From Candidatus Aminicenantes bacterium (GTDB lineage Bacteria; Acidobacteriota; Aminicenantia; Aminicenantales; Aminicenantaceae): a stretch of 64,000 nucleotides of DNA. Below, piece after piece: positions 4,367 through 33,409 of the stretch (position 1 is the stretch's first letter; each line of letters begins with the position of its first letter). The notes beneath the pieces are model-generated. The model worked only from the letters and a program-made list of their open reading frames with translations. It was not told the origin of the DNA and ran no database searches. The stretch is from positions 29,766-93,765 of the forward strand of contig DRHQ01000083.1 in assembly GCA_011049545.1 (NCBI GenBank), written 5' to 3'. The position numbers and the translations under genes were made by a program.

Positions 4367-6518
4367 TTGAAAGATACTGGCTTAGTCCTGTTTCTTTTAC
4401 GATTTTTAAGGTCTTACTTCGTATGAGGCCTTTTTCTAGTCGAAAGGACTCAAGGATCCGAATAATAGAAAAGGCGACTTCTGCGGTCTGTCCCGACTCT
4501 TTCTTTTTGTTTTTGAGATAATTTATGGCATCAAACAAGACAGCGTTTGCTTCGCCGTAAGAAATTGGGTTTCGGATTCCATGAGGCCTTACCCATTGCG
4601 GATGCCTCAGGACGTCGTTGACATGGGATTGAATGAGGTATGTCGCCCGACCAATGAGCTTGAGATTACTGGGGCTGACGTTGGTCATTGTGTTTCCGAT
4701 GACCTTTCCCAGACGCGCCATGACCCCTGTTGAATGGGCGTTAAGCAGGATCTTGAGGGCAATCCGCTGATTGATGCCCAGTGGGTCGTTTGTCGTCCCG
4801 ATGTTCACAACGATAAAGGAGTTTTTCCCTTCAGCTGCGCCATCAGGTATTTTCCGGATGAGTCTTGATATTTTCCTCGAGGATTTGTCAGTTATAAGAA
4901 TAACGGCCACCCTCGCCCCCTTCTTCGAGAAGAGGTCGATGAATTTTCGGATATCAGAATTTTTCTTTCCAAGCTCAGCTTCTTCAGGACTGATAAGCAC
5001 TGCAACTCCCAGGTCTCCTTGTGTGGGTTCTCGATTCTTCAGGTTGAAATCAGCGAAAGAAAAATCGTACAGAAACTGCTGGTCATCTCCTGCGTTTTTA
5101 AGGCTTTCCAGGGCTGCTTTTTTTAAGTAGGCGTCATCTATTTCATCTTCAAATGGTTTTCTGTAGAATTCCGAGGAGAGTCCTCTGAATGGCCTTCCGA
5201 GAAATGCTTGCCAGGCATCCTGGAGATTGGCGGCGGGGGTCCAGACCTGAATCCAGCTTTTTCTTTTTGCTTGCTTGACTGTATCCAAGGGAAAAAGGCG
5301 AAACGTTGGGCTTCTTTCAGTGCTGTCGATAAAGACTGTGATCAAGCCTTTTTGGGCAAAATAGGTAGAGAAATTCCCTGTCTTATAAGTTTGGGCTTCA
5401 AGCTTTGTGAATTTGGCTATGGCCGAAAGGTTTTCTTTGACCTGTTTCAGAATATGAGAAAATTCCTTTAGTTTGTCTTCAAGATGAAGTTCACTTTTGA
5501 ATCCAAGGGCTGCCATTTCTTTTTTGGAGAGGAATTTTCTTAGAGAGCGATCAAGCGCTTGCTGTAGAATATTCCCCACGACAAAAGTTTCGATTGTTGT
5601 AGCCTGCATCCGGGTAGAGCCGGTTATCGACTGAGGTCCTGTTGTGAGATTTATTTTTGTGATTCCGGGTTCTTCAAGGACTCTTCGACTCCTATCGAAG
5701 GGGCGAAGTTTTTCGTCAGGGTTGTTGTAAATAAAATAGAGCTTCTTTTTTGTCTTTTCCGGGTCATAGGACTCGGCTGTTCTCCACTGGTCTAAAGCGG
5801 CTAAAATCGTTCCGATAACAGAAGAAGTTTCACCTCCTTCAGTCACGCAGATGACCACATCCCCTTTCTCGATTTTTCTGTCCTCAAGCTGGAGACGTCC
5901 TATAAGCAGCAGGTCTTCAAATCCTTCAAGAGAACTGATAAGGGCTCTGTCTCCGCCGGTCATCTCTCCGATGAGCTGATTCTCGACGTTATCCCCAAAA
6001 TGGAGCTGGATCTTTGACCAGATCTTTTTCTTTTTTCTGACTTTTTGCCAGAAAGGACGCCAGAAAGTGCTTTCCATCTGTTTGGCCAGACGGCCTGTGG
6101 CACCGCAGCCGTAGATGTATATTTTTTGCCCGGAGAAGAGGGCTTTTTCTATGGCCTGAACAGCTTGTTCCAGGGTATCTTTTTCTCCGGCCAGTGCTGT
6201 AAGTTTTCCCACAATATCTTCGTCTACAGAGAAAAGTAGACGAAGGCCGCTCTTGCAGTCCTTCTGTATTCTTTTGCTTAAATCCCAGGTTTTTGGATGA
6301 CGTTGTTCAGTAAGAAGCGTATGAAGCTGAAATTGAGTTTTATTATGGACATAATCTATGGATTCAGAAGAAGGGCTGATCCTCAGGAGATTAAGGATGC
6401 TGACCTTGGTTGTAGAGACTGCTTGCGTTTCCTGTTGGCCGATGGAAAAAACTTGAAACCCCAGTAGGAGAGATACCAGTACGAGGAAAAAGGTAAAGAA
6501 AATTAGGCGCGAGCTCAT
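4350..6518 (-). CDS. MurQ/GCKR-family SIS-domain protein (N-acetylmuramic acid 6-phosphate etherase-like), atypically long with a predicted signal peptide
   Basis: 722-aa ORF containing N-terminal LLTEQRHPKTWDL, mid GSTRMQATT and C-terminal STGVMARLGKVIGN, read here as MurQ/GCKR-family landmarks (etherase motifs recalled from memory), with large insertions. The N-terminus looks like a signal peptide. Its 3' end overlaps the namZ-like start. Confidence 0.55.
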   Translation of the reverse strand: MSSRLIFFTFFLVLVSLLLGFQVFSIGQQETQAVSTTKVSILNLLRISPSSESIDYVHNKTQFQLHTLLTEQRHPKTWDLSKRIQKDCKSGLRLLFSVDEDIVGKLTALAGEKDTLEQAVQAIEKALFSGQKIYIYGCGATGRLAKQMESTFWRPFWQKVRKKKKIWSKIQLHFGDNVENQLIGEMTGGDRALISSLEGFEDLLLIGRLQLEDRKIEKGDVVICVTEGGETSSVIGTILAALDQWRTAESYDPEKTKKKLYFIYNNPDEKLRPFDRSRRVLEEPGITKINLTTGPQSITGSTRMQATTIETFVVGNILQQALDRSLRKFLSKKEMAALGFKSELHLEDKLKEFSHILKQVKENLSAIAKFTKLEAQTYKTGNFSTYFAQKGLITVFIDSTERSPTFRLFPLDTVKQAKRKSWIQVWTPAANLQDAWQAFLGRPFRGLSSEFYRKPFEDEIDDAYLKKAALESLKNAGDDQQFLYDFSFADFNLKNREPTQGDLGVAVLISPEEAELGKKNSDIRKFIDLFSKKGARVAVILITDKSSRKISRLIRKIPDGAAEGKNSFIVVNIGTTNDPLGINQRIALKILLNAHSTGVMARLGKVIGNTMTNVSPSNLKLIGRATYLIQSHVNDVLRHPQWVRPHGIRNPISYGEANAVLFDAINYLKNKKKESGQTAEVAFSIIRILESFRLEKGLIRSKTLKIVKETGLSQYLSNVTSQ

Positions 6519-19867: not shown

Positions 19868-19942
19868 CGGGGAGTAGCGTAGCCTGGTTAGCGCGCCTGC
19901 TTTGGGAGCAGGAGGTCGTCGGTTCGAATCCGATCTCCCCGA
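19868..19942 (+). tRNA. tRNA-Pro (anticodon TGG)
   Basis: Manual fold: acceptor cggggag/ctccccg, D arm, anticodon stem cctgc/gcagg with loop ttTGGga, T arm gtcgg-ttcgaat-ccgat, discriminator A. No encoded CCA. Confidence 0.85.
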
Positions 19943-20011
19943 TTAAAACTTAAGACGGATAAAGGAACAATCGGATATAGAAGCCGATTGAGATAGAAAA
20001 ATATCAAGGAT

Positions 20012-21022: not shown

Positions 21023-21084
21023 AGCGGGTGGCTGTTAACCACTAGGTTGTAGGTTCGAGTCCTACCCGAGGAGCCATCTTTTTA
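21023..21084 (+). repeat. 3' fragment of a tRNA-Asn(GTT)-like gene (anticodon arm + T arm + acceptor 3' + CCA), direct repeat copy 1
   Basis: ggtgg-ctGTTaa-ccact…gtagg-ttcgagt-cctac-ccgagga-g-cca. No matching 5' acceptor or D arm upstream. ~95% identical to 29921-29982. Confidence 0.75.
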
Positions 21085-21191
21085 TGGGGTAAAAAGCTCT
21101 CGACTATTTAAGCAACCTTATCCGTAGTTAGGCAAGTTTAGGCATTTATTGACACACCACTGACACACAGGAATAGGTGTGTTTTTCTTGT

Positions 21192-22280: not shown

Positions 22281-22474
22281 CGAAGAGAAGCATTGATTAA
22301 TACACTCCTAAAATTTAATAAATCTTTTGATCTCGATTTTTACTCCCTGCCTTTCAATACTCCCAATCTCGACTGGCGATCTGTGTCGCACGATGGGTAT
22401 TATGTAAACTTGCTACCTTGTAAAATGACCTTGAGAGCGGGAGAATAGATTATTGAGGGAAAAGGAGGGGGACA

Positions 22475-22626: not shown

Positions 22627-24114
22627 ATGAGCGATATATATAGAAAGTTAGACAAAGTTTTCTTAGAACTAACTCAAGCCCTTTCTATCTATAGTAAATC
22701 AAAATTCTTGCAAGATTATTTTATAACTTCCTACATTTCATTTATATATGCAAATATTATTAAAAATTTTTTTATTAATTTGACAAGAGAGACTATAAAA
22801 AAATTAAATTTACCTAAAAGCCAAATAGGTGAAATCAAAAAAAAATATAAAGAAATACAGAAAGAAATAAATTTAGCAATATCTATTTCATTGAAGGGTA
22901 AAAAAATAGATGAAAAATATTACAGTAAATTTAAATCTAATATTAAAAAAGATTTCCCTGAATTTATAAAAATATTATCTACAGTTGAAAAAGAGATTAA
23001 AATTGCGAGGCTAAAGAAATTTATTAACAAAAAGAAAATAGAGATAAAAAGGGTAGGTCAAGATGAAGCAGATCTTCATAAAGATTTATTAACAAAAGCA
23101 TTAGAAGCGTATATTCAGGAAAAAAAAGAAATTCCGAGTATGATAAAAGTAAAAAACCTTATTAATACTATTGGAAGAGAAATCTTACCAAAATTTTCAG
23201 AAGCTTTAACGGCAGATCTTATTAAGGATAGACACGCGTTTTTATCAGATCAAAGAAAACTCCAAAAGGGATTTGAGACTCGATTATATGAAAGGTGGAA
23301 GGATCCTTTAGACCTCTTTGAATGCTTAATTCAAATTTCTTTAGAATCTGGAGAAAAACGTAAAAAAAAGTTAAATAATAAGAAAAATAATAAAAATAAT
23401 TCTAAATATGACGCGCTAATTAAACTTCATGCCAGAGCCTTACATATTTCTAACGAAATAGCTATTTTGCTGAAATCGGGTTATGCAGATGGTGCAAACG
23501 CCAGATGGAGGAGCCTCCATGAATTAGCTGTTATTTCTTTTTTCCTATGTGAAAATAATAATGATGCTTCAAAAAGATATTTAGAGCATAGCGTTATAAG
23601 AGCACTAAAAGAGGCAAAGGATTATAGAACCTATTATAAAAAATTGGGATATCCTCCTATAAAAAGAAAAGAGCTTCTGATGTTAGAAAAGGAAGCAGAG
23701 AGGCTATGCAAAAAGTATAGTGATAGATTTCAAGATGATTATGGTTGGATTCCCAGCTCCATATTAAAAGAAAGAAATTTTAAAGCTCTAGCACAATCTG
23801 TTAAGCTTGATAAATTACGTCCATACTATAACCTTGCTTGCGATTCTTCCCATGGAGGTTCAAAGGGGTTTTATAGACTTGGTTTAATGGATGATTCTCA
23901 AGACAAAATATTTCTTGTTGGTTCAAGTAATTATGGACTTGCTAGTCCTCTCCAAAATTCTGCTATTTCTTTATTACACGTTTCCTCTTGCTTATTAACT
24001 TTGGAGCCTGACTTTGAAAGCATTATACAAATATATGTGATGGGTAATTTTATGAACGAAATTTGTGATAAAGCAGTTGAAGTTCAAAGTAAGATTGAAA
24101 AGGAAACAGATTAA
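22627..24114 (+). CDS. Large Lys/Ile-rich hypothetical protein with a C-terminal HEPN-like R-x4-H motif (Abi-like candidate)
   Basis: 495-aa ORF in very AT-rich DNA. The C-terminal region has …GANARWRSLHELAV… (R-x4-H) inside a predicted helical domain. No other recognisable motif. Confidence 0.55.
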   Translation: MSDIYRKLDKVFLELTQALSIYSKSKFLQDYFITSYISFIYANIIKNFFINLTRETIKKLNLPKSQIGEIKKKYKEIQKEINLAISISLKGKKIDEKYYSKFKSNIKKDFPEFIKILSTVEKEIKIARLKKFINKKKIEIKRVGQDEADLHKDLLTKALEAYIQEKKEIPSMIKVKNLINTIGREILPKFSEALTADLIKDRHAFLSDQRKLQKGFETRLYERWKDPLDLFECLIQISLESGEKRKKKLNNKKNNKNNSKYDALIKLHARALHISNEIAILLKSGYADGANARWRSLHELAVISFFLCENNNDASKRYLEHSVIRALKEAKDYRTYYKKLGYPPIKRKELLMLEKEAERLCKKYSDRFQDDYGWIPSSILKERNFKALAQSVKLDKLRPYYNLACDSSHGGSKGFYRLGLMDDSQDKIFLVGSSNYGLASPLQNSAISLLHVSSCLLTLEPDFESIIQIYVMGNFMNEICDKAVEVQSKIEKETD

Positions 24115-24192
24115 TAGTAATTCTGCTTCTTTAATAATCATTATGTTAACTCGCTCCGTATGAAATGACCTTTATATATTTTAGGAGTAGAC

Positions 24193-24645
24193 ATGAGCAC
24201 AACTCAATTAATATTTCCTTGGTACCATAGGATAAGACATGTAGATTTAAAGAAAATAAAACACCCTACATCTTTGTTGGATTTTCAAGAATTATCATAT
24301 ACAGAAAGATATGATTCTCGATATTTTAAATATCTTAACTTGTCAAATAAGAAATTGTCTACAAACTGGCTAGACTCGTGGGAATCAATATTTGTAGTCG
24401 GTCCATTTATAGAAAGAAAACAGAAATATAATAAAATTCCGTTCATTGTCTTTATAACAGAGGGAAGCATTTATAGCCAATTGGTGGTTTTAAGCAGAAG
24501 ACTTGAGCTGCCTTATTATGAGTTCGGGATAATGCCAGATTTATATATATATCCTTCTAAGCTTCACAAATATTTCACTATGAAAAAGGATAAGCTTTGG
24601 CTTAGAACTGAAGCCGTTTCTATTAGACTTAAGAAAGGAGGATGA
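24193..24645 (+). CDS. Hypothetical protein, translationally coupled upstream partner of the HEPN-like ORF
   Basis: 150-aa ORF whose stop is 1 nt before the next ATG. No canonical nucleotidyltransferase G[SG]…D.D motif found. Confidence 0.5.
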   Translation: MSTTQLIFPWYHRIRHVDLKKIKHPTSLLDFQELSYTERYDSRYFKYLNLSNKKLSTNWLDSWESIFVVGPFIERKQKYNKIPFIVFITEGSIYSQLVVLSRRLELPYYEFGIMPDLYIYPSKLHKYFTMKKDKLWLRTEAVSIRLKKGG

Positions 24646-24646
24646 A

Positions 24647-25042
24647 ATGCCCAATCCAAACCAGTACAAAAAAATATCAGATAGATATCTAAATGCTTCG
24701 GATTTATTGGTTGATGATGTTCATGAGGCAGCAGGATTTTCTTTATATCATGCCTTTGAATCCATGGGAGCTGCATGGATAAGAACGAATGCTAGAGTTG
24801 TGCCTCATAGACATGAAAGCAAAATTAATATGTTCGTATCTTTAACGAGAGAAACTGGGCACAGAACTGGTATTGGGCTGGTAGGTATTTTATTAAACTC
24901 ATTGAGAAATAAGATGCTTTATCCAATTCCTGAAATTCCGTCAGGTTTTTCGATACCTCACATTAAATTCTCAGTCTCAGAAATAAAAAATTTGAGCCGA
25001 AGGGTAAAAGGTATTTTAAATATAATAAGACCTCTAATCTAA
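24647..25042 (+). CDS. HEPN-domain-like small protein
   Basis: 131-aa ORF. ASDLLVDDVHEAAGFSLYHAFESMGAAWIRTNARVVPHRHESKINMF follows the helical HEPN pattern (…A.DL…A..y.a.E…KA…p..H…L.). Confidence 0.45.
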   Translation: MPNPNQYKKISDRYLNASDLLVDDVHEAAGFSLYHAFESMGAAWIRTNARVVPHRHESKINMFVSLTRETGHRTGIGLVGILLNSLRNKMLYPIPEIPSGFSIPHIKFSVSEIKNLSRRVKGILNIIRPLI

Positions 25043-25059
25043 TTACTCAAGAATATTGT

Positions 25060-25560
25060 ATGGATAAAGATAGATTTCTTCGTGTTTTCAAGGAATCATT
25101 GGAAGTAATAACAGAAAAACGCTTCTTCTCATCTGAGCTAGGTTATCAAGGACAACTTGTATCTGAGCTAAATAAAAGATTAATAATGGAGTTGGTTTTT
25201 TCAAACAGGGCAGTCGTTGAGCAAGAATACCAAAAAAGATTGAAGGACCATGGTATCAGAATAAGGCCGGACATAATTATTCATGTCCCATACTCAGAAG
25301 GAATTCATTCCTCAAGGAAAGAAGATAATTACGTGGTTATCCAGCTAAAAAAGAACTCATCAAAAAAAGATGCTTTAGATGATTTAAAAAAAATTGACTT
25401 ATTATTTCAGAATTTAGATTATCCACTTGGTGTTTTTCTGAATATAGGTTCTGAGAAAAATTTTTATAGTTATTATTTAGGAGAATATAGAGATCGAATT
25501 CATTGTTTTGCAGTTCTATTGTCAGCAGAAGACAAGGTAATCATACACAAATCACCATAA
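25060..25560 (+). CDS. Hypothetical protein, possible PD-(D/E)xK nuclease-like fold
   Basis: 166-aa ORF 17 bp after the HEPN-like gene. Contains …E…RPDIIIH…VVIQLKK…, a weak E/PD/QxK arrangement. Confidence 0.45.
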   Translation: MDKDRFLRVFKESLEVITEKRFFSSELGYQGQLVSELNKRLIMELVFSNRAVVEQEYQKRLKDHGIRIRPDIIIHVPYSEGIHSSRKEDNYVVIQLKKNSSKKDALDDLKKIDLLFQNLDYPLGVFLNIGSEKNFYSYYLGEYRDRIHCFAVLLSAEDKVIIHKSP

Positions 25561-25647: not shown

Positions 25648-25700
25648 TGGAAGTCAAAAACCCTAAAGCCCTAGCTTCCCCGATTTCTGAAAAAGACAGT
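25648..25700 (+). repeat. Island hairpin motif family P5, copy A (GGAAG[CT]CAAA-N-CCTAAAGCC-YTRGCTTCCC-N-GAT[TT]GAAAAAG)
   Basis: Imperfect inverted repeat GGAAGCCAA/TTGGCTTCC followed by GATTGAAAAAG. Four copies, each 60-130 bp upstream of an ORF (25780, 28174, 31890, 32334). Confidence 0.7.
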
Positions 25701-25779
25701 AGAGCGAATTTAAAGCTAATTTCTCTTTCCCGGGAAGATTGTGCCGCACAATCGATATTATGTAAACTTATAAAAACCT

Positions 25780-26688
25780 ATGTCGAATCATAAAAAACAA
25801 CATTCTGTTCCCAAATGTTATCTCAGGGAATTTATTGACCCAGAAACTCCAGGTGGATATGAGCCTTTTATTTGGATTTTTGATAAAAACGGCAAGAACA
25901 AAAGAAAGAAGGCACCTAAAAATGTATTAACAAGTAACAATCTATACACTATTGAAGTCGAAGGGAAGGCTAGGGATTATTCTATTGAAAAAAGCCTCTC
26001 TTCTATTGAGAACGATTTTGCAATTTTGTTCAGACAGAAAATCAAAAATCTATTGCCATTATCAGAGGAGGAGCACATATCTTTGTGCATTTTTATAGCC
26101 ACTATGCTCCAGAGAACTGTTAGCCAGAAAGCTAATCTAGAACATTTCCTTGATGAGCTAATTTCACATGGCGAAAAATTAGCAGCACATCATGGAATTA
26201 AGTCGAGGACTGTTGAGAGCCTAAAAAACTACAAAAGAGATGCTCATAAACTCAATATTTTGAAGATGTTTCCAGAAGTGACTCAAATTTTATTAAATAT
26301 GAGCTTGGCATTCGTAATAGTGGGGAGAAGCAAATCTCGGTTTATTACCTCCGATGACCCATGCACCCTTTTTAATCCAAAATTAAGAGAGCAACGCCTT
26401 ATGGGTCCAGGATTGGGTCAGAAGGAAGTTGAATTGACTATTCCATTATCTCCTGAGATTGCACTCTGTTTGAGCTGGAGTAATTTTCGGGGATTTATTG
26501 AAATTGGAAAACGACAGATTGAAGAATTAAATAGAACAACGCGAGCCCATTGCTATGAACTCTTTATTTCCTCTAGTTCCCATAAAAAATTTAGATGGTT
26601 TTTAAAATACCCTTTGAGCCTAATTTTTGTCATGAAAGTTATCAGACAGAAGTTTAATTATAGAATTCATAGAAATTTTCACTCATGA
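25780..26688 (+). CDS. DUF4238-like protein
   Basis: 302-aa ORF whose N-terminus (HSVPKCYLREF) fits, to my recollection, the family signature H-x-V/I-P-x-x-YL-R/K-x-F. Preceded by a repeated tattatgtaaactt -10-like element. Confidence 0.55.
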   Translation: MSNHKKQHSVPKCYLREFIDPETPGGYEPFIWIFDKNGKNKRKKAPKNVLTSNNLYTIEVEGKARDYSIEKSLSSIENDFAILFRQKIKNLLPLSEEEHISLCIFIATMLQRTVSQKANLEHFLDELISHGEKLAAHHGIKSRTVESLKNYKRDAHKLNILKMFPEVTQILLNMSLAFVIVGRSKSRFITSDDPCTLFNPKLREQRLMGPGLGQKEVELTIPLSPEIALCLSWSNFRGFIEIGKRQIEELNRTTRAHCYELFISSSSHKKFRWFLKYPLSLIFVMKVIRQKFNYRIHRNFHS

Positions 26689-26697
26689 ATTCAAGTT

Positions 26698-27564
26698 ATG
26701 GCAAAAGAAGATAGATATTCACTCGCGTTATATTTAGCCTCTAAAGGCCAACTGGACAAAGCCTCATTCCTTCTGTGGAAGATAGTTGAGAAAACAAATA
26801 GTGCAGAGTTAATGCTGAACTCCATATTGGCTTTGGTTACTATGTTGGGGCGAAAAGAAAACAACGAAAAAATTATAAATCTATGTGATAAGGGAATTGA
26901 ACTCTCTTATAGACTCAATAATGAGAATGCCAAAGCATTTCTAATGGCGACTAAAGCTCTAAGCATAATAATTGAAGTCGAATTCAATCTACACAAGAAG
27001 AAGAATCTTGTTTTAGCACCGGGGTGGAAGGAATTTGCCTTGGAATCCATAAAGGAGGAGTTCACAGTCCTTACAAGAAAGATTGAGCAAAACCGGAGTG
27101 AATCACAACAATTGATAACTGAATCCTTCAAAGGAATCAGTTCAAGTCAAATTAGTGAAACACTAGCAGACGTTTTAATGATAAAAGGTGAATATCATTT
27201 TGATGAATACCTGAATTACAAAATAGAAAATATCAAAACTACAAAATTTAGACTGTTTCTAAAGAACGTCAGTAACATTGACTCTTTTCTTTATAATCAG
27301 AGTAGCCAAAAAACTACAAAAAGAATTTTAAAGGACTCAAAGAAGTGCATCATTGATGCAGCACAGATTTATAAGAATCTAGGAGATGAAATAAATCAAG
27401 CAAATGCTTATTTAAACTTAGCAAATCAAGCGATTTCGATAAATCGTAAAAAGGAAGCGAGGAAATATCTAAAAAAAGCAATTACTGAAGTTCAAAACAA
27501 TAAAAATTTGGAAATATTGAACAGAATTAGAAATTTGGAAGAACGATTAATGAAACATGATTAG
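26698..27564 (+). CDS. Hypothetical alpha-helical (TPR-like) protein, probably co-transcribed with the DUF4238-like gene
   Basis: 288-aa ORF 9 bp downstream of the previous stop. Repetitive helical hairpin pattern (…AYLNLANQAISINRKKEARKYLKKA…). Confidence 0.5.
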   Translation: MAKEDRYSLALYLASKGQLDKASFLLWKIVEKTNSAELMLNSILALVTMLGRKENNEKIINLCDKGIELSYRLNNENAKAFLMATKALSIIIEVEFNLHKKKNLVLAPGWKEFALESIKEEFTVLTRKIEQNRSESQQLITESFKGISSSQISETLADVLMIKGEYHFDEYLNYKIENIKTTKFRLFLKNVSNIDSFLYNQSSQKTTKRILKDSKKCIIDAAQIYKNLGDEINQANAYLNLANQAISINRKKEARKYLKKAITEVQNNKNLEILNRIRNLEERLMKHD

Positions 27565-28065: not shown

Positions 28066-28115
28066 CTTAAGCCAAATACCCTAAAGCCCTGGCTTCCCTA
28101 GATTGAAAAAGATAT
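28066..28115 (+). repeat. Island hairpin motif family P5, copy B
   Basis: aagccaaataccctaaagccctggcttccctagattgaaaaag. Confidence 0.7.
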
Positions 28116-29187: not shown

Positions 29188-29484
29188 AATAAAGAAAATA
29201 TTTGGAAGGTATACACTTTACCCCAAGTATTTTGTTTGCCTTCTTTCCAGTTAATTGCACTCGTTCACTTTCTCATTCTATGTTTCTCGTTTGGGCAATA
29301 AAGCCAATCCTCAAGCCTTGAACATCAATCCACCCTGTCCCCAGGCGAAGGATTGCGTCGCATATCTATTATTATGTATACTACTATAACTCACATAATA
29401 TCAGTAAGTTGCGATGATTTAGATTTGAAATATTATCCCATTTTGGGCCAAAAAAAGGGGGTAAATTCCCGTTTTTCAAATAGG

Positions 29485-29575
29485 GGTGGCGTCTGACTGC
29501 GAATCAGAAGGTCGTCGGTTCGAATTCGATCTCCCCGATTAAAGCTTAAGACGGATAAAGGAACAATCGGATATA
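29485..29575 (+). repeat. tRNA 3'-fragment direct repeat (copy of tRNA-Pro T arm, acceptor 3' end and 37 bp of downstream flank)
   Basis: 29510-29575 matches 19914-19979 at 64/66 positions (…ggtcgtcggttcgaat[ct]cgatctccccgattaaa[ag]cttaagacggataaaggaacaatcggatata). It is preceded by an unrelated anticodon-arm-like hairpin and has no 5' tRNA half. Confidence 0.8.
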
Positions 29576-29659
29576 AAAATAAGTTCTTCCTGTCTTCTCA
29601 CCTTCAGCCAGATTTAGAGGGGTCTAAATGAATCTGATATTACCAAGCTCTGTAAGCCA

Positions 29660-29920: not shown

Positions 29921-29982
29921 AGCGGGTGGCTGTTAACCACTAGGTTGTAGGTTCGAGTCCTGCCCGAGGAGCCATCTTTTTA
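29921..29982 (+). repeat. 3' fragment of a tRNA-Asn(GTT)-like gene, direct repeat copy 2
   Basis: Same as 21023-21084 with one T-stem substitution (cctgc vs cctac). No 5' half present. Confidence 0.75.
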
Positions 29983-30103
29983 GGGGCCAGAGACAACCTC
30001 TCATTTACTCACCATTAGGCAATAGCGAGCAATTGTAGTCATTTTGTGTCATGCGGACGTCACCGGTCTATCACATGGCAGAAAACAGGTCATTATTACG
30101 TGG

Positions 30104-32333: not shown

Positions 32334-32555
32334 ATGCAGGAGGTGGTTGAGAAGCACCCCGATTATAGCAATCCGAAGAATGGATTTGCGCAAATCTGGT
32401 ATTCGGAGCATTGTACGGAAGAGCTTTTATCCTTGGTAGCGCTGCGGAAGCCTAACTGCAAGGATCAGATGCGGTCTATTTGTTGCCTGCATCCGCTTGT
32501 TGGGCAGTCAGTGCGACGTAGATCACCGATGGAGTTTTCGAATCGTCTCGTTTGA
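32334..32555 (+). CDS. Possible small hypothetical ORF (73 aa) overlapping the 3' end of the convergent NYN gene
   Basis: ATG directly after P5 copy D with an AGGAGG-like site. Overlaps the opposite-strand gene by ~80 bp; may be spurious. Confidence 0.25.
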   Translation: MQEVVEKHPDYSNPKNGFAQIWYSEHCTEELLSLVALRKPNCKDQMRSICCLHPLVGQSVRRRSPMEFSNRLV

Positions 32556-33225
32556 GTGTAAATGTTTTGCGGCAATCCTTAATGAGCGACAGGAGACCTT
32601 TGTGACCAAATGTCCGGGGATCAAATGCCGGGTCCAATCGACGAAGAACAGACCCCATTGTCGACAGATTAATCCATTCTTCTTCCCTCGCAACCATCTC
32701 GAACGCTTTAAGAAGAAGAGGCTCAGGGTCAGACAGATCAGACTTCTCTTCCTTTTTCGTTATTTTGTTCGTTTCCTTTGTTTCAGTAAGGTTCTCGCAA
32801 TAGATAAATTGATTGCATGCGTTGGTGAAGGCTTCTGGAGTTTTCTTCTCCCCGACTCCAATGACAAAAAGCCCTTCCTCTCTTATTCTTGTTGCTAGTC
32901 GTGTGTAATCGCTATCACTGGAAACAATGCAAAAGCCGCCAACATCGTTGCTGTGGAGTAGATCCATCGCATCGATTATCATCGCGCTATCTGTTGCATT
33001 CTTGCCGACCGTATACCTGAACTGCTGAATCGGTTGAATAGCATGTTTGTGGAGTAATTTTTTCCAGCTATTCATGCTTGTAGTGGTCCAGTCTCCATAT
33101 ATCCGCTTGACTGTGATCATGCCGAATTTGCTAATTTCTGCCAAGATCTGAGGAAGAAGTGACGCTTGCGCATTGTCTCCATCAATGAGTACGGCAAACT
33201 TTTCTTGCTTAGATTGTTCATCCAT
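32476..33225 (-). CDS. NYN (LabA-like) nuclease domain protein with C-terminal OST-HTH/LOTUS domain
   Basis: Start chosen at the ATG preceded by GGAGGG (MDEQSKQEKFAVLIDGDNA…). Carries NYN acidic residues (D-x-D-N, …SSDSDY…) and a C-terminal LOTUS-like helix-turn-helix. Confidence 0.65.
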   Translation of the reverse strand: MDEQSKQEKFAVLIDGDNAQASLLPQILAEISKFGMITVKRIYGDWTTTSMNSWKKLLHKHAIQPIQQFRYTVGKNATDSAMIIDAMDLLHSNDVGGFCIVSSDSDYTRLATRIREEGLFVIGVGEKKTPEAFTNACNQFIYCENLTETKETNKITKKEEKSDLSDPEPLLLKAFEMVAREEEWINLSTMGSVLRRLDPAFDPRTFGHKGLLSLIKDCRKTFTLKRDDSKTPSVIYVALTAQQADAGNK

Positions 33226-33409
33226 TTTGTAGCCCTCCACTGGTCGATTTAGGCCCAACAATTACTATACCGCATGCAATAAAATGTGAAAACTGAAGCT
33301 CAAATAACATCTTGAATTAATGAACCCATGCATCATAGCAATGAAAACACAGTAATATTCTATCAATATCCTTGTTATGCTACAAGCCTCATATCTATTA
33401 TTATGTTAA

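Follow-up and report, generated by a model that had tools for sequence, protein, structure and literature searches.

A conserved HEPN-like gene pair with a predicted, catalytically dead MNT partner in a genomic island of Candidatus Aminicenantes

In characterized HEPN-MNT systems, the antitoxin is the product of the 5' MNT gene and AMPylates a tyrosine in the RX4HXY motif of the HEPN ribonuclease (RNase) (PMC7641770; PMC11586414). A different motif arrangement is described for the AF0298-like HEPN-T group and for AbiV: the motif arginine is kept, the histidine is lost, and a second, strongly conserved histidine is found N-terminally (Anantharaman et al., PMC3710099). Here we analyze three adjacent genes, designated A, B and C, in a 64,000-nt stretch of a Candidatus Aminicenantes contig (DRHQ01000083.1), referred to in its full length as the window. 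The conserved unit among them is the pair A-B, with C as a neighbor, and we consider it probable that this pair is a two-gene toxin-antitoxin or abortive-infection-type module derived from the HEPN-MNT family. All three genes lie within an 8.8-kb island (~21.1-29.9 kb) of low guanine-cytosine (GC) content, 0.32-0.35 inside versus 0.41-0.47 outside. The genes and their ribosome-binding sites are as follows.

24193-24645, + strand: gene A (150 aa), ATG start, TGA stop at 24643-24645
24647-25042, + strand: gene B (131 aa), ATG start, TAA stop
25060-25560, + strand: gene C (166 aa), ATG start
24183-24187, + strand: Shine-Dalgarno-like AGGAG of gene A, 5 nt 5' of its ATG
24636-24641, + strand: Shine-Dalgarno AGGAGG of gene B, within the 3' end of gene A

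The genes were taken from the open reading frame (ORF) listing and the raw sequence, and the Shine-Dalgarno sites were read from the sequence. An earlier reading of the same DNA, the original prediction, had described three tightly spaced ORFs, and their coordinates, lengths and gaps are all reproduced here: a single nucleotide (24646) lies between the A stop codon and the B start codon, and the spacer from the B stop to the C start is exactly 17 nt long (25043-25059). The AGGAGG of B lies inside the 3' end of A, shortly before the A TGA (24643-24645) and the B ATG (24647), and this arrangement implies that A and B are translationally coupled. Inspection of the sequence upstream of the C ATG revealed no obvious Shine-Dalgarno sequence. 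The promoter and terminator scan returned promoter-like sites at no more than the chance number, and no operon boundary was drawn from it. A, B and C are real genes and not chance ORFs, since homologues of each are present in other assemblies and the ratio of non-synonymous to synonymous substitution rates (dN/dS) falls at 0.2-0.7 in comparisons with close relatives (A 0.18-0.27; B 0.55-0.69, window B against loci L001, L002 and L015; C 0.19). The exact proteins are on record twice, as HEB35711-13 from a Candidatus Aminicenantes metagenome-assembled genome and as KKN68817-19 from a marine sediment metagenome.

The word-index search returned 8 clusters of B homologues, and pattern scans of collected genomes and metagenomes extended the set with relatives at 29-45% identity. 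Overall, the B homologues span 28-92% identity and at least 9 phyla, with representatives in Aminicenantes, Gemmatimonadota, Dehalococcoidia, Latescibacterota, Brocadia, Thiotrichaceae, Acidimicrobiia, Cyanobium and Shewanella. An A-like gene of 130-170 aa lies directly 5' of B in all loci with upstream sequence (L001-L005, L007-L021), the two genes overlapping by 4-14 nt or lying 0-4 nt apart. The hidden Markov model (HMM) of the A family, which comprises 26 representatives at 50% clustering in an exhaustive HMMER search, detects this upstream gene in L001-L005, L007-L010 and L014-L021, and the most divergent upstream partners (L010-L014) are homologous to A by profile alignment (hhalign probability 96%, E 4.8e-9). 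The reverse search, from A representatives, finds B as the next gene at a 0-nt gap (L027) or a 4-nt overlap (L028).

The gene 3' of B varies while the A-like gene is always 5', and the conserved unit is therefore limited to A and B. Only in L002-L005 and L016 is A-B followed by C, in the same order and with the same 17-nt spacer, and these loci amount to essentially a single sequence from about five contigs or assemblies. Other genes take its place in L001, L006, L007-L013, L015, L017, L020 and L028, among them loci where B is as close to window B as 85% (L001), 79% (L015) and 56% (L006) identity. The genes found 3' of B elsewhere include the following.

L001: membrane protein
L006: UvrD-like helicase
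L013: AAA ATPase
L010: PIN-type toxin-antitoxin pair
L028: 508-aa protein with a weak AbiV-like HEPN match
L008: housekeeping genes

The original prediction of a three-gene cassette with an added nuclease is not borne out by this distribution, as C adjoins A-B only in near-identical relatives and its family is found without A-B. One could still imagine A, B and C as a single system of three components, with A controlling the joint action of the HEPN RNase and a PD-(D/E)xK nuclease. Such a system would account for the 1-nt and 17-nt spacing and the absence of a terminator-like site from the B-C gap, for the retention of the A-B-C order and the 17-nt spacer in L002-L005 and L016, and for the location of all three genes in one island. 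However, C is missing after A-B in L001, L015, L006 and every distant pair, with a different next gene each time, and it lacks an obvious Shine-Dalgarno sequence of its own. Its family is far larger, with at least 142 clusters compared with the 8 clusters of B and the 26 representatives of A, and in L022-L026 C homologues occur without A or B nearby: beside Hachiman genes, in an ArdC/type ISP restriction region, and among ordinary genes in housekeeping contexts. A single three-component system is thus very unlikely.

Gene A cannot be assigned by sequence profiles. Window A has no match in Pfam or NCBIfam (E<=1), PADLOC or PHROGs; NTP_transf_2 and related Pfam and NCBIfam profiles are matched at E<=1 neither by window A nor by the 15 A-family members scanned; and a PDB sequence profile search with the A family gave chance-level matches only. 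An AlphaFold2 model built from 27 family sequences reaches a predicted local distance difference test (pLDDT) score of 90.8 and a predicted template modeling (pTM) score of 0.86. The best PDB matches of this model in Foldseek, at probability 0.9-1.0, are MNT antitoxins of HEPN-MNT systems and adenylyltransferases.

1no5: HI0073
8xeh_E, 8xeo: MNT of L. pneumophila (Legionella)
6m6u, 6m6v, 7bxo: MntA
5yep, 7aer: SO_3166
AadA and AAD(9): aminoglycoside adenylyltransferases

The best viral structural match of A is a Pol-beta nucleotidyltransferase (NTase). In our own mapping from the model, the secondary-structure order of A appears to correspond one-to-one to the MNT core, with the following elements and motifs.

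Residues 63-69: strand b1, ending in G70 at the hG[GS] position
Residues 81-88: strand b2, equivalent to the DxD strand, 11-18 residues past G70, as in GSX10DXD
Residues 93-111: helices
Residues 114-121: strand b3, carrying D116 at the third carboxylate position and followed by two helices
Residues 143-146: strand b4, the last strand
24397-24408, + strand: VGPF, spanning G70-P71-F72
24436-24459, + strand: IPFIVFIT, residues 82-89, where the DxD strand is expected
24532-24552, + strand: MPDLYIY, containing D116

None of the 27 sequences has an aspartate or glutamate at positions 81-88. G70 is invariant (27/27) and is followed by proline in place of serine or glycine in 26/27; D116 is retained in 20/27, and E110 in 21/27 with aspartate in 2 more. 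Both G70 and D116 are gone from the distant subfamily A8. A search for the GS...DxD pattern over 270 kb of analyzed DNA revealed no canonical MNT gene for profile-profile comparison, and for this reason the assignment of the DxD strand rests on model topology and motif spacing and not on residue-level superposition. The fold core (~39-146 in our placement) is preceded by an N-terminal extra of ~38 residues with a conserved PW..RL...HP signature.

The model thus places A among proteins with a predicted Pol-beta-type NTase fold, with MNT antitoxins as the best match. Because of this MNT-like fold and the lack of any acidic residue in the putative DxD strand of all 27 sequences, A is best described as a catalytically dead MNT, a pseudoenzyme with an extra N-terminal segment. 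The absence of G[SG]...DxD from the upstream protein had been noted correctly in the original prediction, and the degenerate NTase fold looked for there, though unmatched by sequence, emerges in the model as a fold nearest to MNT, pointing to a degenerate MNT and not to an unrelated family. That A is still an enzyme, modifying B in a type VII-like manner or acting on another target, with E110 and D116, for instance, taking over from DxD, seems very improbable to us. Both of these residues are fairly conserved and near the third carboxylate position, and G70 is invariant, but hydrophobic residues occupy the sites of the two Mg-binding aspartates, the defining feature of Pol-beta NTases, in 27/27 sequences, subfamily A8 has lost D116 as well as G70, and NTase profiles match 0/15 of the members scanned. 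In B, moreover, no tyrosine is found at the RX4HXY acceptor position that MntA uses (PMC11586414).

Window B likewise has no match in Pfam (E<=1), NCBIfam, PADLOC or PHROGs, and no PDB relatives of the B family are detectable by sequence profile search. The Pfam HEPN profile PF05168 is, however, matched by 8/16 B-family members. The B protein of L011 scores 28.9 bits against a gathering (GA) cut-off of 22 (E 1.4e-6) and aligns to positions 5-116 of the 117-position profile, and the remaining matching members score 14-19 bits, under the 22-bit cut-off. Three B relatives also weakly match HEPN_AbiV, around the R-N..LYP region, and the UniRef entry of the exact window protein is named 'HEPN domain-containing protein'. 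By transitive homology, B appears to be a divergent classical (PF05168-type) HEPN, with a putative HEPN fold and active-site geometry. Three motifs stand out in its sequence.

24746-24763, + strand: Y34-HAFES39
24794-24814, + strand: R50-x5-H56 (R50-VVPHR-H56), with H56 invariant
24905-24922, + strand: R87-NKML-Y92

Among 16 sequences, down to 28% identity, the invariant residues of B are E27, F31, Y34, H35, A36, F37, E38, S39, G41, A43, H56, K59, F63, R87, L91, Y92, P93 and R119, and N88 is nearly invariant. The canonical R-x4-6-H endoRNase motif, expected where core helix 3 ends, is not found: the equivalent site reads R87-x4-Y92, with tyrosine replacing histidine. The R50-VVPHR-H56 string of window B literally fits R-x5-H, and the arginine is only R/K in most relatives and gone in several; R50-H56 is ruled out as a canonical motif, R50 not being conserved and H56 alone being invariant. 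The HEPN-like identification made in the original prediction therefore stands by way of the relatives and the UniRef name, and a profile search finds the window protein unmatched and family members matched, one of them above the cut-off; the R-x5-H string on which that identification probably relied is not conserved. An arginine without its histidine, combined with the conserved upstream H56, is a pattern that, as far as sequence goes, matches the alternative histidine site of the AF0298/AbiV type. Changes in B among close relatives cluster in residues 47-86, and residues 1-46 are almost invariant.

Some loci of the pair depart from the common layout. B is disrupted while A is intact in 4 lineages: by an in-frame TGA in L008, L018 and L019, by truncation in L014 (Shewanella waksmanii) and L021, and by a C-terminal frameshift in L012. 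The TGA is found in the B gene of a Dehalococcoidia population, at codon 42 within the invariant motif (YHAFESIG*AWIR), in three independent assemblies.

L008, 6124-6126: in-frame TGA of the B homologue
L018, 6124-6126: in-frame TGA of the B homologue
L019, 1843-1845: in-frame TGA of the B homologue

The equivalent codon is TGC (Cys) in the relative L017 and encodes alanine or glycine in other B proteins. A reading of this TGA as selenocysteine was considered, and with no convincing hairpin 3' of the TGA a nonsense mutation is more likely. The L008 pair is placed among housekeeping genes. One Logan contig of 1920 nt (P0178) encodes a 282-aa in-frame A-B fusion (...SIRLKKADE-MPNPTQYK...), which is either a natural fusion or an artifact of an assembly error of 1 nt where A and B lie 1 nt apart. 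In Thiotrichaceae (L011), two tandem overlapping A-like genes (5039-5569 and 5547-5993) precede a single B. In L028, the 508-aa product of the gene directly 3' of A-B (1365-2891) weakly matches HEPN_AbiV in Pfam, which would make this a second HEPN-like gene. Searches with tblastn found no match for window B, L011 B or C in the plasmid collection, and none for window B in the phage collection.

We think it likely, without being certain, that B acts as a toxic RNase through an alternative active site (R87/N88 plus H56) and that A neutralizes it by type II-like binding. A would be translated first, from the same transcript as B. By analogy with other HEPN toxins, B would dimerize and cut RNA, using R87/N88 of the degenerate R-x4-Y motif together with H56 in the loop before helix 3. 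A would keep the MNT fold but be unable to AMPylate B, because both metal-binding aspartates and the serine of G[SG] are lost, and would instead neutralize it by stoichiometric binding in the type II manner. B might then be freed once A is degraded or displaced, for example by phage infection or loss of the island. The toxicity of B, its physical binding by A, neutralization and release are steps that we infer. A toxin-antitoxin or abortive-infection-type module is favored, indirectly, because B and not A decays, because of the A-B fusion in P0178, and because of the patchy cross-phylum spread of the pair and its location in the island, beside DUF5677 and DUF4238 genes, a setting consistent with mobile or defense DNA. 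It is also favored by the order and coupling of the genes, which are those of MNT-HEPN dyads (PMC3710099), with the MNT-like gene first and the ribosome-binding site of B inside A.

Several observations weigh against this interpretation. Window B itself misses the Pfam HEPN profile at E<=1, and the canonical catalytic histidine is missing, so that B could be non-catalytic. The dN/dS of B (0.55-0.69) is above that of A (0.18-0.27), a pattern not usual among toxins that may point to relaxed constraint. The Foldseek matches of A have E-values of only 3e-3 to 5e-2 and TM scores of 0.4-0.6, and ribosomal protein S3 is also among them. Some of the B disruptions, found in metagenome-assembled genomes or short contigs, may be errors of assembly, and the 17-nt B-C spacing, with no terminator-like site in between, allows C to be co-transcribed.

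Part of this evidence could also describe a non-toxic domesticated remnant, in which both partners are non-catalytic and their complex serves as an RNA- or nucleotide-binding regulator. B is without the histidine of R-x4-6-H and A without DxD, and HEPN domains that lack the motif are often non-catalytic binders (PMC3710099). The relatively high dN/dS of B would fit as well, as would the pair between housekeeping genes in L008. We nevertheless regard a remnant as unlikely: the dense set of polar residues that stay invariant in B to 28% identity (E27, H35, E38, S39, H56, K59, R87 and R119) matches what is seen in the alternative-His HEPN families, for which activity is predicted (PMC3710099), while the repeated disruption of B with A intact, the patchy cross-phylum distribution and the island location also speak against it.

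Returning to the toxin-antitoxin module, a broader proposal can be made tentatively, and we stop short of calling it probable. A-B may represent an unannotated cross-phylum HEPN family in which an AMPylating MNT has turned into a binding-only pseudoenzyme controlling a HEPN RNase with an R87 + H56 site. This would be a reversion from enzymatic to stoichiometric neutralization, with the dead MNT possibly acting as an infection sensor that releases the toxin. The original prediction of a variant or new HEPN-associated module is upheld in so far as A, a non-canonical (degenerate) MNT, stands in for the usual NTase, but not in its nuclease third gene, which lies outside the module. No description of a HEPN partner with a dead MNT fold was found in the literature searched, which does not prove that none exists.

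The neighboring gene C belongs to a family distributed in Bacteroidota, Acidobacteriota, archaea and others. Pfam gives no match for this family, and a PDB sequence profile search with it returned chance-level matches only. The AlphaFold2 model of C (pLDDT 90.5) has NucC, the DdmD nuclease domain, Cas4, PaqCI, Can2, PspGI and BbvCI as its top Foldseek matches, with weak E-values from 1e-3 upward. In the alignment E26, E56-Y57, K59, R69-P70-D71, H75 and N90 are invariant, and K97 is nearly so (at least 90%). The corresponding motifs in the window protein are listed below.

E26, + strand: invariant glutamate of gene C
E56-Y-Q-K59, + strand: motif of gene C
25264-25284, + strand: R69-P-D71
25339-25353, + strand: Q95-L-K97

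These features suggest a PD-(D/E)xK-like fold, and the modeled fold and the E...PD...(E/Q)xK motif agree with the original prediction for the 166-aa protein. Position 95, the (D/E) of (D/E)xK, is glutamate in 39/51 members and glutamine in 9/51, the latter being the window protein and its 8 closest relatives. Because glutamine here replaces the first acidic residue of (D/E)xK, the catalytic competence of C in the window clade is uncertain. The UniRef name of C is 'Type I restriction enzyme R protein N-terminal domain-containing'. The PADLOC model PD-Lambda-3_A gives a weak local match to C (residues 82-133, E 7.6e-6) that is seen in 8/51 members, and the PD-lambda-3 partner models have no match among the neighboring genes scanned. 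Membership in PD-lambda-3 was rejected on the local nature of this match (8/51 members) and the lack of a partner component. Judging by its modeled fold, C is a candidate stand-alone nuclease of defense islands and mobile elements, outside the A-B unit.

The island begins ~1 kb downstream of tRNA-Pro and tRNA-Arg genes and is flanked by direct repeats.

21023-21088, + strand: left 66-nt direct repeat, a tRNA-Asn-like 3' fragment (repeat search; partial Rfam tRNA match)
29921-29986, + strand: right 66-nt direct repeat, a tRNA fragment, 97% identical to the left copy

A second repeat pair (19893-19982 and 29489-29578; 90 nt, 88% identical) corresponds to the tRNA-Pro 3' half with its downstream spacer. 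The flanks look like the remains of repeated tRNA-targeted integrations; no Pfam integrase match was found among the island ORFs scanned. Inside the island, a 30-nt intergenic motif recurs at 22382-22411, 25740-25769 and 29354-29383, and another at 25651-25680 and 28069-28098. Both sit just upstream of gene blocks and may be shared promoter/operator or module-boundary elements. One of the 30-nt motifs, TGTGyCGCACrAT..TATTATGTAAACTT, includes a short palindrome and shares sequence with a terminator-like hairpin at 25737-25753.

Other genes of the island and its edge carry domains of interest. Upstream of A, 22627-24114 encodes a 495-aa protein with a DUF5677 domain (E 2e-29), in which the R-x4-H string RWRSLH (residues 293-298; 23503-23520) recalls the HEPN motif. 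DUF5677 is named in a 2025 preprint as one of the domains enriched near defense-associated recombinases. Downstream of C lies a DUF4238 gene (25780-26688; Pfam E 2e-37, PADLOC DUF4238-Pers E 3e-11), and a TPR protein gene (26698-27564) begins 9 nt past it; the two are probably a separate candidate defense pair. Just outside the island, on the - strand, 32476-33261 encodes an NYN-domain RNase fused to an OST-HTH/LOTUS domain.

If our interpretation of A-B is true, the pair would be a natural experiment, in which an MNT partner keeps its fold without the catalytic carboxylates and a HEPN partner has swapped its catalytic histidine. It could show how an enzymatic antitoxin becomes a binding-only antitoxin, and which MNT surfaces suffice to restrain a HEPN protein. 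The analysis would also provide a first annotation for protein family A, unmatched in Pfam, NCBIfam, PADLOC and PHROGs. For annotation practice, the PD-(D/E)xK gene C is best treated as a separate candidate single-gene defense or mobile-element nuclease family.

Compared with known systems, C resembles NucC, the effector of the cyclic oligonucleotide-based antiphage signaling system (CBASS), and protein A of PD-lambda-3, an E. coli abortive-infection system reported with a PD-(D/E)xK domain (PMC13190303; PMC10952713). The likeness lies in the predicted fold, the E...PD...(E/Q)xK motif and the defense-island neighborhoods; the difference is that no cyclic-nucleotide system or conserved partner gene is found near C. 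For the A-B pair, the HepT/MntA type VII systems (Shewanella SO_3166/SO_3165, Legionella HEPN-MNT, H. influenzae HI0073/HI0074) are alike in their two small coupled genes with the MNT-fold gene 5', in providing the MNT structures that the A model matches best, and in their patchy, mobile distribution. In contrast to them, A has an N-terminal extra of ~38 residues and is without GSX10DXD, with proline for serine, so that AMPylation is excluded as far as the sequence tells. B, in turn, appears on the PF05168 branch and not on that of DUF86/PF01934, and has R-x4-Y where these systems have RX4HXY, both the catalytic histidine and the in-register acceptor tyrosine being missing. Because the defining catalytic features of type VII fail in this comparison, A-B would fall outside HepT/MntA, and we do not assign it to type VII.

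AbiV of lactococcal abortive infection is alike in being a small HEPN protein in a defense context, and in the weak HEPN_AbiV match of B relatives. It differs in its length (~200 aa), in its 91-RNHKSKH-97 motif and in having an RNA antitoxin (type III), whereas A-B has a strictly conserved protein partner. The classical HEPN (PF05168, 'HEPN-T')/MNT dyads of the AF0298-like type share with the pair the full-length PF05168 matches of B-family members and, in the AF0298-like group (PMC3710099), the kept motif arginine, the lost histidine and the second conserved histidine N-terminal to it. Most B members, including window B, nevertheless remain under the Pfam cut-off, and the partner of B appears to be a dead MNT in place of the active MNT of these dyads.

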